Positions 21,373 through 27,438 of a stretch of DNA of 64,000 bases are shown piece by piece. This stretch comes from a virus (lineage: Duplodnaviria > Heunggongvirae > Uroviricota > Caudoviricetes), in IMG/VR virus record IMGVR_UViG_3300008108_000006; one strand, 5' to 3'. The stretch's first letter is position 1; each line of letters opens with the position of its first letter. Under the pieces are notes generated by a model. That model did not search any database. It had not been told where the DNA came from and worked only from the letters and a program-made list of their open reading frames with translations. Position numbers and translations under genes: made by a program.

Positions 21373-21494
21373 TATAATAAAAGTTTTTTAATTTATTTAC
21401 CATAAATACTTTACTTTTAACCAAAAACCGAAGATAATATAAAGTTCATTATCTTTATTTCTACTAAAAATATCTTTTTTTGATATTTAACGAT

Positions 21495-23202: not shown

Positions 23203-23244
23203 ATTGATAAATACTTGATTGTTTATTATATTTACCTTTTAAGT

Positions 23245-24999
23245 ATGAATGAAATAAAAATCAATCAACCGCTTGAAATCAGAGCACTTGATGTCCTTGA
23301 TAGTTATTCAGGGGCAAACAATTATATTATTAAATTAAAAATCAAAAAAGATACCAATAAAAAGTTCTATCCAACAAGAAACCAAGCGGAATATATCTTG
23401 GCTTATAAAGATTCCGTTCCAAAAGTTGCAAGAAAATGGGTGGAACTTGATATGTATTTTGCCAATAAATTTGCTGATGAAAAATTATTAACCGAAGTTC
23501 CAACCAAAATATGGGTTGAGAAGTTATTGGTTGAAAAAGATACGTCTTATCACATTTGGGGTAAGTATTTTGAACACGAGGAATTATATGATTTTTGGAT
23601 TCCTAAATCAGGAATTATTAAAGATACTTCTGTTAAGGTTGTTATTGACTATGAAAAGTATTCACATAGACCGCCTCTTTCACACCAAAAAGAAGGTATT
23701 GAGAAATTAGTTGGAAATAAAAAATACATTCTTGCCGATGATATGGGTTTGGGGAAGACAACACAAACAATTATTGCTGCGTTGGAGACAGGGGTTGAGA
23801 AGGTTTTAATTATTAGTCCTGCATCATTGAAGATCAACTGGCAACGTGAGATTGAAAATTACACGGATAGATCGGTTGTAATTATTGATGGGAAGAAATG
23901 GGAATCCGCCGATTTTGTTATCGTAAATTATGACATTTTGAAAAACTTTCATGATCCAAAAAATCGGGAAGAAAGTCAAATATTGAATGAAGGATTTGGG
24001 TTGGTCATTATTGATGAAGCACATTATATTCAAAACACACAAGCACAAAGAACAAAACTTATTAACGATTTTGTTAAAAAAATTGATAGATTATGGTTAT
24101 TAACCGGAACACCAATGACATCAAGACCAATAAACTATTATAACTTATTAAGTTTGATTGATTCACCCGTTGCAATGAATTGGATGGCTTATGTTATGAG
24201 ATATTGTGAAGGTTATCAATTCAAGGTAGGGAATAGAAAAGTTTGGAATGTTAATGGTGCGTCAAATCTTGAAGAATTAAGAGATAGAACATCTCGTCAA
24301 GTATTAAGAAGATTAAAAACCGACGTATTGGATCTTCCTGAAAAAATCATCACACCCGTTTATCTTAAATTGAAATCTTATGAATATGAACGATTGATGG
24401 GTGAATATTATGATTGGTATGATAACTCTAAAGAATCTACCTCATTAACCGTACAATTCACTAAATTAATGAAGGTTAGACAGGTTATATCGGAAGAAAA
24501 AGTAAAATCAACAATTGAATTATGTGAAAACATTATTGAACAAGGAAAGAAAGTAATTGTTTTTACCAATTTTACCAACTCGTTAAACTCTATCTTATCT
24601 CACTTCGGAAAAAAAGCGGTTGGTCTTGATGGTAGTATGCCTCAAGGTATGAGACAAGATAACGTTGATAAATTCCAAAATGATGAAAATATTATGGTGT
24701 TTGTTGGGAACATTAAAGCAGCTGGGGTTGGTATCACATTAACATCTGCGGAAGTTGTTGTTATGAATGACCTGTCATTTGTACCGTCAGATCACTCACA
24801 AGCCGAGGATCGTGCTTATCGTTATGGTCAAAAAAATAACGTTTTGGTATATTATCCTATTTTTGATAACACGATTGAGGGTATTATTTATAACATTCTA
24901 CAAAAGAAGAAAAACATCTTTGAAACCGTTATGGGGGATAATTTAAGTAAGGGTGATATGGTGGAGGAAATCATGAATATGATTAACACAAAAAGATAA
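23245..24999 (+). CDS. SNF2-family (SMARCAL1/HARP-like) helicase/ATPase
   Basis: ILADDMGLGKT, DEAH, LLTGTP, GVGITLT, QAEDRAYRYGQ; probable start MNEIK at 23245 (track uses 23215). Confidence 0.9.
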   Translation: MNEIKINQPLEIRALDVLDSYSGANNYIIKLKIKKDTNKKFYPTRNQAEYILAYKDSVPKVARKWVELDMYFANKFADEKLLTEVPTKIWVEKLLVEKDTSYHIWGKYFEHEELYDFWIPKSGIIKDTSVKVVIDYEKYSHRPPLSHQKEGIEKLVGNKKYILADDMGLGKTTQTIIAALETGVEKVLIISPASLKINWQREIENYTDRSVVIIDGKKWESADFVIVNYDILKNFHDPKNREESQILNEGFGLVIIDEAHYIQNTQAQRTKLINDFVKKIDRLWLLTGTPMTSRPINYYNLLSLIDSPVAMNWMAYVMRYCEGYQFKVGNRKVWNVNGASNLEELRDRTSRQVLRRLKTDVLDLPEKIITPVYLKLKSYEYERLMGEYYDWYDNSKESTSLTVQFTKLMKVRQVISEEKVKSTIELCENIIEQGKKVIVFTNFTNSLNSILSHFGKKAVGLDGSMPQGMRQDNVDKFQNDENIMVFVGNIKAAGVGITLTSAEVVVMNDLSFVPSDHSQAEDRAYRYGQKNNVLVYYPIFDNTIEGIIYNILQKKKNIFETVMGDNLSKGDMVEEIMNMINTKR

Positions 25000-25015
25000 T
25001 GATATATTTATCATT

Positions 25016-25339
25016 ATGAAAGTTAAAGTAACAGAAGATAAGTTATACCCTGTTTTCAAAAAATTTATGGAAACTCAGTTTAAGAATTATGAATGGATCG
25101 AAGATAATTATGATGTTGTTTTGTTTATGAGTCCCGGAGGAGATTCTTATTTGGCGTTGAGTAAAGATAAAACTTTATTAATTTATGCTAAAACCGCAAA
25201 AAAAATCCTTAATTACCTTCCTATGGAACGATCTATGTTCCTATCACTTATGACTAGATGGGTAGGAGAGACCTTAAATATTAAGGGTATAACCCTCTCG
25301 CAGTTTCAACAGTTGGTTTTGATTAGCCTTAATAGATAA
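25016..25339 (+). CDS. Cassette protein 1 (unknown family)
   Basis: MKVKVTEDKLYPVFKKFMETQFKNYEW...YLPME..M...LM.RWV.ETL; most diverged copy. Confidence 0.85.
   Translation: MKVKVTEDKLYPVFKKFMETQFKNYEWIEDNYDVVLFMSPGGDSYLALSKDKTLLIYAKTAKKILNYLPMERSMFLSLMTRWVGETLNIKGITLSQFQQLVLISLNR
25262..25337 (+). CRISPR. Degenerate repeat-spacer unit 1
   Basis: 36-nt GTAGGAGAGACCTTAAATATTAAGGGTATAACCCTC (25262-25297; stem CCTTAA/TTAAGG), 30 unique nt, then CTTAATAGAT (7/10 identical to GTTGATGGAT, the second-repeat start of unit 3). Confidence 0.4.
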
Positions 25340-25358
25340 TAATAATATATTTATCATT

Positions 25359-25700
25359 ATGAAAGTTAAAGTAACAGAAGAAAAGTTATATCCATTATTC
25401 AAAAAATTCATGGAAACTCAGTTTAAGAAATATGAATGGAGAAAAGGTAAATTTGATTCCATTTGGTTCATAGACCCTGAAGGATATGGTCACATGGGAT
25501 TGTTGAAAAATAAAGAGTTATTAATCTATCGTGAGATTAAAGATCAAATTCTTCGCTACATTCCTATGGAAAAATCTATGTTACAAACACTTATGAGTAA
25601 GTGGGTAGAAGAAACCCTTCAAGTTGAAGGGTTAACCGTTCCCACTGTACCCCAATTTACAATACCGCGTTTTTATGATGGTGATACCTTTCCATTATAA
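25359..25700 (+). CDS. Cassette protein 2
   Basis: Paralog; reads through repeat and spacer to DGDTFPL*. Confidence 0.85.
   Translation: MKVKVTEEKLYPLFKKFMETQFKKYEWRKGKFDSIWFIDPEGYGHMGLLKNKELLIYREIKDQILRYIPMEKSMLQTLMSKWVEETLQVEGLTVPTVPQFTIPRFYDGDTFPL
25605..25700 (+). CRISPR. Repeat-spacer-partial repeat unit 2
   Basis: 36-nt GTAGAAGAAACCCTTCAAGTTGAAGGGTTAACCGTT (25605-25640; perfect IR AACCCTTCAA/TTGAAGGGTT), 36-nt unique segment, then GATGGTGATACCTTTCCATTATAA from 25677. Confidence 0.55.
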
Positions 25701-25714
25701 GAATATTTATCAAT

Positions 25715-26050
25715 ATGAAAGTTAAAGTAACAGAAGATAAGTTATACCCTGTTTTCAAAAAATTTATGGAAACTCAGTTTAAGAATTATGAATGGAGAAA
25801 AGATCGGAATGATGACATTTGGTTTTCAGATCCTAAAGGGTATGGTCATTTGGGATTGGTACACATTAAGGATTTATTGATCTATCGTGATATTAGAAAA
25901 AAAATACTTCCTTATCTTCCTATGGAACAATCTATGTTAAACTCACTTATGAGTAAGTGGGTAGAAGAGACCCTTCAAGTTAAGGGGTTAGCCCCCACTT
26001 TGGCAAGACACGAATCCTATCCATTAGTTGATGGATCCTTTCCATTATAA
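25715..26050 (+). CDS. Cassette protein 3
   Basis: Paralog; ends VDGSFPL*. Confidence 0.85.
   Translation: MKVKVTEDKLYPVFKKFMETQFKNYEWRKDRNDDIWFSDPKGYGHLGLVHIKDLLIYRDIRKKILPYLPMEQSMLNSLMSKWVEETLQVKGLAPTLARHESYPLVDGSFPL
25961..26050 (+). CRISPR. Repeat-spacer-partial repeat unit 3
   Basis: 36-nt GTAGAAGAGACCCTTCAAGTTAAGGGGTTAGCCCCC (25961-25996), 30-nt spacer ACTTTGGCAAGACACGAATCCTATCCATTA, then GTTGATGGATCCTTTCCATTATAA from 26027. Confidence 0.6.
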
Positions 26051-26064
26051 GAATATTTATCATT

Positions 26065-26373
26065 ATGAAAGTTAAAGTAACAGAAGAAAAGTTATATCCA
26101 GTATTCAAAAAATTTATGGAAACTCAGTTTAAGAATTATGAATGGACAAAAGATGAATATGGGTGTATTGATTTTGTGGATCCTGAAGGATTTGGTCATT
26201 TGGAATTGGAAAACAATGAAGATTTATGGGTTTATGGTGATATTAAAGATCAAATTCTTCGCTACATTCCTATGGAAGAATATATGTTAGAATCACTTAT
26301 GGGTAGATGGGTTGGAGATACCTTTCAAATTGAGGGTATAAACACCAGTATAGAATCGTTTCCAAATTTTTAA
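26065..26373 (+). CDS. Cassette protein 4
   Basis: Paralog; stops at a TAA inside the spacer; conserved tail IVENAFPL* persists in frame afterwards. Confidence 0.85.
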   Translation: MKVKVTEEKLYPVFKKFMETQFKNYEWTKDEYGCIDFVDPEGFGHLELENNEDLWVYGDIKDQILRYIPMEEYMLESLMGRWVGDTFQIEGINTSIESFPNF

Positions 26374-26400
26374 ATCGTTGAAAATGCCTTTCCATTGTAA
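26311..26400 (+). CRISPR. Repeat-spacer-partial repeat unit 4
   Basis: 36-nt GTTGGAGATACCTTTCAAATTGAGGGTATAAACACC (26311-26346), 30-nt spacer AGTATAGAATCGTTTCCAAATTTTTAAATC, then GTTGAAAATGCCTTTCCATTGTAA from 26377. Confidence 0.65.
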
Positions 26401-26415
26401 GAATATTTATATGGT

Positions 26416-26706
26416 ATGAAAGTCAAGGTAACAGAAGAAAAGTTATATCCAGTTTTCAAAAAATTCATGGAAACTCAGTTTAAGAAATATGAATGGAGAA
26501 AAGATGAACTTGGGACTATTTGGTTTATGGATCCTGAAGGATTTGGTGATCTGGAATTGGGAGATAAAAATTTATGGGTTCATCGTGATATTAAAAATAA
26601 AATTCTTCGTTATCTTCCTATGGAAGAATCTATGTTAGACTCGCTTATATCTAGATGGGTTGGAGATACTTTTCAAATTGAGGGTATAAACATCCTCGAG
26701 ATGTGA
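26416..26706 (+). CDS. Cassette protein 5
   Basis: Paralog; stops at a TGA inside the spacer; tail EEVGDTFPL* persists in frame. Confidence 0.85.
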   Translation: MKVKVTEEKLYPVFKKFMETQFKKYEWRKDELGTIWFMDPEGFGDLELGDKNLWVHRDIKNKILRYLPMEESMLDSLISRWVGDTFQIEGINILEM

Positions 26707-26748
26707 TTGCCATGGTAGGAGGAAGTTGGTGATACCTTTCCATTATAA
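26659..26748 (+). CRISPR. Repeat-spacer-partial repeat unit 5
   Basis: 36-nt GTTGGAGATACTTTTCAAATTGAGGGTATAAACATC (26659-26694), 30-nt spacer CTCGAGATGTGATTGCCATGGTAGGAGGAA, then GTTGGTGATACCTTTCCATTATAA from 26725. Confidence 0.65.
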
Positions 26749-26763
26749 GAATATTTATATGGT

Positions 26764-27438
26764 ATGAAACTACTTGAGAGAAAAATACATTTACTAGAAT
26801 CTTTATTGGATGGTAAGAATATTTTTGAAGCCAATTATAAAGCACAAAAATTAGATTATAACTTAAATTCATTATCAGATTTTATCGGTAAAGATACTAT
26901 GGATGTTCATTATAATGGACATTATAAAACTTACCTTAAAAAATTAAATGAACTTCTACCGGATGAAAAAATGATCCCAATAGAAGATTTAATTAAAAAA
27001 ATATCAAGGTATAACAAGAAAATTAGGAATAATGCTGGTGGTGTATATAACCACCAACTATTTTGGAAAATGTTATCACCAAACAAAACAAAACCATCTA
27101 AAGAACTATTAGAAAAAATTAACAAAGATTTTGGTTCTTATGATGAGTTCAAACAAAAGTTTGAAAAAGTGGCATTAGACAGGTTTGGTTCAGGATGGGT
27201 TTGGTTAATTATGGGTAAAAGTGGTAGGTTACGTGTCGTATCTACACCCAATCAGGACAACCCCGAGATGAATATTATTAGAAATGGAGGAAAAATTTTA
27301 TTGGGGCTTGACATTTGGGAACATGCGTATTATCTTAGCTACCGAAATGAGAGAGACCGATATATCAAAAACTTTTGGAAAGTGGTAAATTGGGATTTCG
27401 TAAGTTCAGAATATCAGAAACTTAAACCAACTAAATAA
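26764..27438 (+). CDS. sod: Fe/Mn superoxide dismutase with an N-terminal extension
   Basis: HYNGHYKTY, NNAGGVYNH, FGSGWVWL, NQDNP, DIWEHAYY metal-ligand motifs. Confidence 0.95.
   Translation: MKLLERKIHLLESLLDGKNIFEANYKAQKLDYNLNSLSDFIGKDTMDVHYNGHYKTYLKKLNELLPDEKMIPIEDLIKKISRYNKKIRNNAGGVYNHQLFWKMLSPNKTKPSKELLEKINKDFGSYDEFKQKFEKVALDRFGSGWVWLIMGKSGRLRVVSTPNQDNPEMNIIRNGGKILLGLDIWEHAYYLSYRNERDRYIKNFWKVVNWDFVSSEYQKLKPTK

Follow-up and report, generated by a model that had tools for sequence, protein, structure and literature searches.

The five-unit cassette and its in-frame stops

The window, i.e., the whole stretch of 64,000 nt analysed here (31.6% G+C), belongs to a large tailed phage and encodes a tail sheath and a head-tail adaptor, both recognised with PHROGs. 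It contains a cassette of five tandem units of about 350 nt each, with a helicase gene on one side, presumably SNF2-like judging by its motifs, and a superoxide dismutase gene on the other (Table 1). The stretch 24900-26900 is carried by sequencing runs from 15 studies, many of them with a lake or freshwater label, and a diverged relative in run X1 has both flanks joined without the cassette (joint 25014-26763). The motif TATTTAT lies at most 45 nt 5' of 15 of the 59 window ORFs versus 0.9 expected, and from this enrichment it is likely a phage promoter or leader element; it stands close 5' of many window genes and on their strand, as at 25005, 26752 and 28258 (+) and at 21408, 23213 and 17249 (-). 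At 33932-62380, the window also carries a long gene cluster that resembles, judged by eye, glycosyltransferases and sugar-nucleotide enzymes.

Table 1. Position of the cassette features and flanking genes in the window
Feature	Position	Strand	Remarks
Helicase gene (flank)	23215..24999	+	from translation
Unit 1 ORF	25016..25339	+	107 aa; worn repeat 25262-25297; without half repeat
Unit 2 ORF	25359..25700	+	113 aa; repeat 25605-25640, worn but with its hairpin; segment of 36 nt at 25641-25676; half repeat translated in frame, 25677-25693
Unit 3 ORF	25715..26050	+	111 aa; repeat 25961-25996, worn; spacer of 30 nt at 25997-26026; half repeat translated in frame, 26027-26043
Unit 4 ORF	26065..26373	+	102 aa; stop is the TAA within the spacer; identical protein on 18 contigs
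Unit 4 full repeat, 36 nt, GTTGGAGATACCTTTCAAATTGAGGGTATAAACACC	26311..26346	+	encodes VGDTFQIEGINT in frame; window's best match to the host VI-B repeat profile
Predicted Cas13b-type guide of unit 4, 66 nt	26311..26376	-	spacer then repeat; antisense to the ORF; predicted from orientation and fold only
Unit 4 spacer, 30 nt	26347..26376	+	7/30 G+C; TAA 26371-26373
Unit 4 half repeat	26377..26393	+	first 17 nt of the repeat; 4 mismatches versus unit 5 half; untranslated 'VENAFP' tail
TATTTAT motif 5' of unit 5 start	26404..26410	+	enrichment before window ORFs
Unit 5 ORF	26416..26706	+	96 aa; stop is the TGA behind three spacer codons; same protein on 21 contigs
Unit 5 full repeat	26659..26694	+	2 mismatches versus unit 4
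Predicted guide of unit 5	26659..26724	-	guide-strand repeat predicted unfolded (0 kcal/mol); may be worn
Unit 5 spacer, 30 nt	26695..26724	+	15/30 G+C; TGA 26704-26706, TAG 26716-26718
Unit 5 half repeat	26725..26741	+	untranslated 'VGDTFP' tail
TATTTAT motif 5' of superoxide dismutase gene	26752..26758	+	sequence motif
Fe/Mn superoxide dismutase gene (flank)	26764..27438	+	Pfam PF02777/PF00081

Every tailed unit of the window has one full and one half repeat. The full repeat, 36 nt long, lies 5' of each variable segment and encodes the last 12 conserved residues of the small protein (VGDTFQIEGINT in unit 4), while its first 17 nt recur at the start of the tail ending in 'FPL' that follows the segment; the remainder of this tail, which leads into TATTTAT, likely belongs to the next gene. 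The half repeat and the next gene's TATTTAT persist irrespective of whether, and in which frame, they are translated, which bears out the proposal of the first-pass annotation that the tail is maintained as nucleic acid. The same annotation had pointed to in-frame stops of all three types within the segments, and translation confirms them: unit 4 reads GINTSIESFPNF-stop-IVENAFPL-stop and unit 5 reads GINILEM-stop-LPW-stop-EEVGDTFPL-stop, with TAA in the former and TGA and TAG in the latter, and units 2 and 3 are open through DGDTFPL and VDGSFPL up to the terminal stop. Apart from the repetitive context, nothing favours assembly errors as the source of these stops. The unit 5 spacer is covered without differences by contigs of runs X1, X2 and X4, and also by X13, with two differences that lie in the ORF; the unit 4 spacer with its borders (26335-26400) is spanned by three of four runs with 0-1 other letters, that of X13 being at 26386. 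The same letters in runs of several studies and the recurrence of identical truncated proteins on 18 and 21 contigs, counts that may include re-assemblies, make an assembly artefact hardly conceivable.

Other parts of the early description stood less well. The segment length of 30 nt holds for units 3, 4 and 5, but the unit 2 segment has 36 nt and unit 1 is tail-less, and the 24-nt tails, described as conserved, are just 18-23/24 identical. Three stops in four window segments are at chance level (2.5 expected, P = 0.47). The 15/30 G+C of the unit 5 spacer, taken as conspicuous, is correct as a figure but weak alone, since 3.6% of the window 30-mers reach it or exceed it and the unit 4 spacer has 7/30; the high-G+C signal lies in the family mean, 43% for spacers versus 30-32% for the phage genomes, and not in unit 5 alone.

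Repeats, spacer gain and likeness to type VI-B arrays

Repeat patterns run over IMG/VR and metagenome contigs yielded 97 repeat units, which fall into three lineages. Stricter patterns used at the outset gave no match, nor did locus scans of IMG/VR based on proteins, with the lineage of the window, and an Rfam search matched no family. An in-frame Trp codon precedes 76 of the 77 first repeats, and an ORF of 60 or more aa lies upstream of 72 of them. Half repeats carry 1.4 mismatches per 12 nt relative to their own repeat, 1.8 within the lineage and 3.0 across lineages. Repeat conservation is highest at the second codon position, followed by the first and the third, and position 36 of the repeat is C in 66 of 68 phage repeats. 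The worn repeat of unit 2 (25605-25640) folds into a perfect 9-bp hairpin of -11.8 kcal/mol, stronger than that of the intact repeats. In a distant lineage (L167:2622, L169:3679-3850), the same protein family is joined to another 36-nt repeat whose boundary is one base off the codons, which suggests that the repeat either arose separately or has slid. Record G005 holds about 60 tandem paralogs in about 20 kb (L098:14433-20000, L099:180-13457), with ends that grade from intact repeat-spacer junctions to fully worn ones.

Two to four full 36-nt repeats stand behind the same gene at 13 loci, some of them from near-identical phages, and the maximum of four is found in L003 and L080. The spacer peptide QCFHHRKTKT occurs alone in P0085/P0089, behind TPRRICSRVN and a new repeat in P0018/84/86/88, and behind yet another spacer in L080; an older spacer thus stands by itself in some cases and after either of two distinct newer ones in others, which means that arrays gain spacers. 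Moreover, P0073 and P0090 have their later spacers in common but not the first one, runs X1 and X2 contain a different 30-nt spacer between like flanks, and the window's lineage has 30 first-spacer peptides, or 28 once two near-duplicate pairs are merged by eye. The worn repeat is distal in longer arrays, which suggests growth at the gene side; duplication of a single full repeat gives this order whichever side is attacked. Spacers align with one another no better than shuffled letters (mean identity 0.254 versus 0.253), contrary to what homologous protein-coding segments would give. Thus, the segments behave as CRISPR spacers, as had been supposed: they cannot be aligned, have a duplicated repeat of 36 nt at their sides, are added by insertion and exceed the phage in G+C. 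That they are foreign DNA, as was further supposed, can only be inferred, as no protospacer was found. It is highly probable that these are spacer-gaining CRISPR-type arrays, a status that is far firmer than the role of the RNA because no target was found.

None of the spacers has a protospacer in any of the collections searched, which sample this lake poorly. No target was present in GenBank phages, plasmids and five related phage records, in a local BLAST of 64 and then 75 spacers, in the contigs of four runs (unit 4 spacer), in IMG/VR by codon-wobble patterns of the unit 5 and unit 4 spacers (one reading frame each), or in 401 Bacteroidota genomes and 21 genomes of one genus, and the 75 spacers gave just four chance matches of 15-16 nt against 1.66 Mb of fetched phage and host DNA. 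As to the machinery, neither Cas13b, searched with a positive control, nor Cas1 was detected in ten related phage records, Cas2, Cas4 and reverse transcriptase were absent from five, and there is no Cas13b-like ORF beside the array and, by eye, no reverse transcriptase among the window ORFs; only one of the related records searched for cas genes is complete, and for this phage itself the survey was confined to the ORFs of the window.

The closest likeness is with the repeats of Cas13b-associated arrays. A two-repeat pattern over GTDB gave 41 matches, all 41 in arrays, including those of Flavobacterium columnare and Bergeyella zoohelcum and all presumably from Bacteroidota, judging by the organism names, although the pattern had been loosened with known host repeats in mind and the count is not a blind one. 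The Cas13b cut-off was passed by 8 of 10 large adjacent ORFs tested, the remaining two genomes matching weakly, and host cas13b is always on the strand opposite the phage + orientation. The seven 36-mers of the window that score highest under the host profile all coincide with repeats of the five units, and repeat positions 20-36, which lie outside the search pattern, fit this profile with P = 0.0002 for units 4 and 5. The unit 4 repeat is within 8-15 mismatches of 28 host repeats, but no near-identical repeat was found in GTDB representatives or in the 401 Bacteroidota genomes. The phage repeats have the 36-nt length, hairpin, U-rich loop and approximately 30-nt spacers that are hallmarks of type VI-B, but not the complementary GUUG/CAAC ends: positions 2/35 are unpaired in 50 of 50 phage repeats (3 of 28 in hosts, with another base), and position 35 is C/T in 68 of 68 phage repeats versus A/G in 28 of 28 host repeats. 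Run X2 has contigs with tandem repeats that match the initial 28 nt of the unit 4 repeat (window 26311-26338) at 80% or more, end in the canonical CAAC and are not preceded by the small gene, possibly a host array in the same lake.

In published accounts, VI-B guides have a spacer of 30 nt and, 3' of it, a repeat of 36 nt whose loop is U-rich, and cleavage by Cas13b is prevented by a C on the 5' side (10.1101/092577); the arrays are transcribed from the leader (10.1101/092577, PMC8092290) and obtain spacers in trans from II-C Cas1-Cas2 (PMC8092290), and the leader-side first repeat is described as useless and suppressed (PMC13187072). Taken together, the loop and the cas13b orientation imply that guides would be antisense to the gene, and the half repeat is located where the useless first repeat would be, which fits a suppression of the leader-side repeat. 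The + strand was considered as the guide strand and is disfavoured by loop and cas13b orientation, though it folds slightly better. The guide-strand repeat fold is weak in unit 4 (-4.9 kcal/mol) and nil in unit 5, and two of the six host repeats displayed are also weak; antisense promoters are not above chance (9 versus 10.5).

Coding constraint on the gene-proximal spacer and the small protein

The 97 units gave 75 distinct spacers, or 71 after collapsing, once units with no recognisable downstream repeat or with a duplicate spacer had been dropped; window units 2 and 3 are outside the 75-spacer set. The loci are not phylogenetically independent, and with this limit 58 gene-proximal spacers contain 10 in-frame stops versus 31.7 expected (29 and 27 in the other frames), and the 13 gene-proximal spacers that came from the second round only contain 1 versus 7.6. 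Within the lineage of the window, a stop ends 5 of the 28 first spacers, fewer than the approximately 43% expected, in a set that comes from a protein search and is biased. There is no stop depletion in 13 later spacers and no frame bias in 323 host spacers. Tabulated across cassettes, lengths vary, stops are depleted and G+C is raised, so the earlier claim of a segment constrained in length but not in coding content is not supported: gene-proximal lengths are 28-33 nt, with 30 nt in 15 of 58, compared with 10 of the 13 later spacers and 286 of the 323 host spacers. Stops are tolerated in units 4 and 5, yet they are selected against family-wide.

Length and stops are linked, since a stop is present in none of the 43 gene-proximal spacers of other lengths and in 7 of the 15 of 30 nt (Fisher P = 2e-5). 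We infer that two costs may act, one of a stop inside the spacer and the other of reading the next repeat in frame, and such a model fits the DNA set; a 30-nt spacer would bear one of the two costs in either case, and the advantage would lie with rare spacers of another length that are free of stops. Many 30-nt in-frame read-throughs exist among the protein matches. They led us to drop an apparent rule whereby arrays with several spacers avoid 30 nt in the first one (12 of 13), with the proviso that the protein set is biased in the opposite direction. Frame-locked acquisition from coding strands was likewise discarded as the cause of the depletion, because host spacers are unbiased and the codon-position composition of the open frame is flat. 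The first insert is likely also selected as a protein tail.

The protein itself is real, as indicated by selection on the ORF bodies (median dN/dS 0.51 in nine bodies). Two fold models are confident (pLDDT 89 and 86), and both place the last strand at E93-96/97, running 2-3 residues into the spacer; beyond residue 100, the pLDDT of the second model falls to 51. The fewest spacer residues in any stop-bearing allele are three (14 cases, counted by hand), and unit 5 has exactly three. Stops are likely selected against because the last strand enters the spacer and the end-point of translation matters. The spacer peptides are near random (hydrophobic z = 0.7, aromatic z = 2.1, no position pattern). 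Pfam, PHROGs and NCBIfam gave no significant match for the small protein, and among solved folds Foldseek gave none at E<=0.001 and the best VIA Z was 4.0, which is not proof of a new fold; the structural neighbours are uncharacterised phage proteins only, and the unnamed viral clusters of the Atlas at 0.88-0.89 are a lead only. The domain also occurs in a widespread two-domain fusion of 218 aa (P0048, P0096-P0194), in which the ex-spacer region is fixed and shows point changes only, and fused in much longer phage proteins (L168:4097-6154, L170:2544-5065, P0046), with lengths of 357-685 aa and, in a case with 13 stretches of the domain, 4138 aa.

Possible roles of the gene-embedded arrays

The window units are read here as cas-less phage CRISPR mini-arrays embedded in a protein gene and with a putative guide function. 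The observed basis for this comprises the arrangement of repeats and spacers, the gain of spacers together with a duplicated repeat, the resemblance to Cas13b-linked repeats, orientation included, and the reality of the stops. We consider it moderately probable that host-acquired spacers are read out as antisense Cas13b guides, the protein tail being a by-product under purifying selection. The last 12 conserved codons of a small phage gene would double as a 36-nt type VI-B-like repeat, followed by a spacer of about 30 nt and the half repeat. Host Cas1-Cas2 likely inserts the spacer, acquisition in trans being suggested by the lack of Cas1/Cas2 in related records. The opposite strand would yield spacer-repeat guides that could be loaded on host Cas13b and aimed, most likely, at transcripts of the host or at rival phages; the mRNA of the gene itself may be protected because it has C just 5' of every spacer. 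Since no stop is fixed at the end of the gene, the newest spacer codes for the protein tail as well. Arrays may shrink to a single spacer when an inner repeat recombines with the half repeat, an event that would restore the 'FPL' tail. Besides the missing protospacers and near-identical host repeats, the difference at position 35, the weak guide-strand fold and antisense promoters at chance level, further observations go against the guide reading: the apparent growth at the gene side, as opposed to the growth of host VI-B arrays at the other repeat end described in PMC8092290, and spacer lengths that are broader than those of the hosts. In addition, the codon-position pattern suggests that protein selection alone could explain much of the repeat conservation.

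The depletion of gene-proximal stops, replicated in the 13 new spacers and absent from later and host spacers, could instead indicate that the insertions serve the protein, each of them rewriting the C-terminal 10 or so residues of a large paralog family, with the guide RNA secondary or absent. The last strand, which both models place over the repeat-spacer junction, would fit this alternative, as do the dN/dS of the bodies and the clustering of about 60 paralogs in one relative. However, purifying selection against truncated proteins accounts for the depletion even if variety brings no benefit, the spacer peptides are close to random in composition with low model confidence beyond residue 100, the stop-bearing alleles of units 4 and 5 are widespread, and later spacers are kept though mostly untranslated; protein diversification as the main role thus seems unlikely. 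The missing targets point in another direction, namely, a decoy that either titrates host Cas13b with its RNA, in the manner of an RNA anti-CRISPR, or diverts Cas1-Cas2 integration to its repeats, the content of the spacers being irrelevant. Repeats that are imperfect relative to those of hosts and present in dozens of copies per genome agree with such a decoy, extraneous crRNA lowers Cas13b defence according to PMC13187072, and single-repeat RNA anti-CRISPRs are reported in PMC11656645. Nevertheless, a decoy needs neither the gain of full 30-nt spacers nor the retention of old ones in order, some spacers persist over many contigs, and absent targets are expected if the viruses of the lake are poorly sampled, so that we rate it somewhat below the protein alternative. 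A variable 3' gene end with a conserved downstream element and many paralogs also recalls mechanisms foreign to CRISPR, such as a diversity-generating retroelement or ordinary recombination between short direct repeats, but this is very improbable: the segments share no template positions (their identity is at shuffle level), there is no template copy in the window or in the 1.66 Mb of fetched DNA and no reverse transcriptase in the five records, and additions are whole 36+30-nt units.

Virus-borne cas-less CRISPR mini-arrays were reportedly described by Faure and by Medvedeva in 2019. Such viral mini-arrays and the host-like repeats of huge phages are known (PMC11656645, PMC7162821, PMC12607003), and the arrays described in PMC11656645 and PMC7162821 resemble the present ones in having 1-4 spacers, no cas genes, host-like repeats and, in part, a large phage as carrier; they differ in that their repeats are host-identical and they mostly target related viruses, neither of which was seen here, and gene-embedded repeats and type VI-B go unmentioned in the available text of both sources. 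The RNA anti-CRISPRs and single repeat units of PMC11656645 are likewise phage-borne and repeat-like and lie behind small genes, whereas the arrays studied here have real spacers gained with repeat duplication. With the type VI-B arrays of 10.1101/092577 and PMC8092290, in turn, the phage arrays share the 36-nt hairpin repeat with its GTTG end and the U-rich guide-strand loop, the spacers of about 30 nt and the lack of adaptation genes of their own. They differ from them in having no adjacent cas13b, a repeat located within a protein gene and translated as part of it in frame, another base at position 35, a halved leader-side repeat, apparent growth at the opposite end and lengths of 28-33 nt. 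In the literature searched, no paper on gene-embedded or VI-B-type phage arrays was found, and the supplementary tables on huge phages may include some unremarked. Diversity-generating retroelements produce hypervariable protein C-termini in phage genes by means of a template, an adenine-specific pattern and a reverse transcriptase; the hypervariable C-terminus is common to both systems, but the phage arrays have none of these three features and vary instead by the insertion of unrelated 30-mers or so.

A bolder, rather doubtful reading unites both sides of the locus: the gene end could be a CRISPR integration site at which one insertion by host Cas1-Cas2 writes an antisense Cas13b guide together with a new C-terminus, sorted by reading frame, so that CRISPR adaptation would act as a diversity generator in up to about 60 paralogs per genome. 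This use may have evolved more than once, because the repeat of another lineage is shifted one base relative to the codons. If the guide reading is true, it would represent the hijack by a phage of an RNA-targeting type VI-B system. Having one full repeat inside a gene, such arrays are missed by standard CRISPR finders. The finding points to Cas13b-bearing Bacteroidota as hosts of an abundant group of uncultured jumbo phages, and it would provide a natural case of CRISPR spacers that are translated and then filtered by selection at the protein level.
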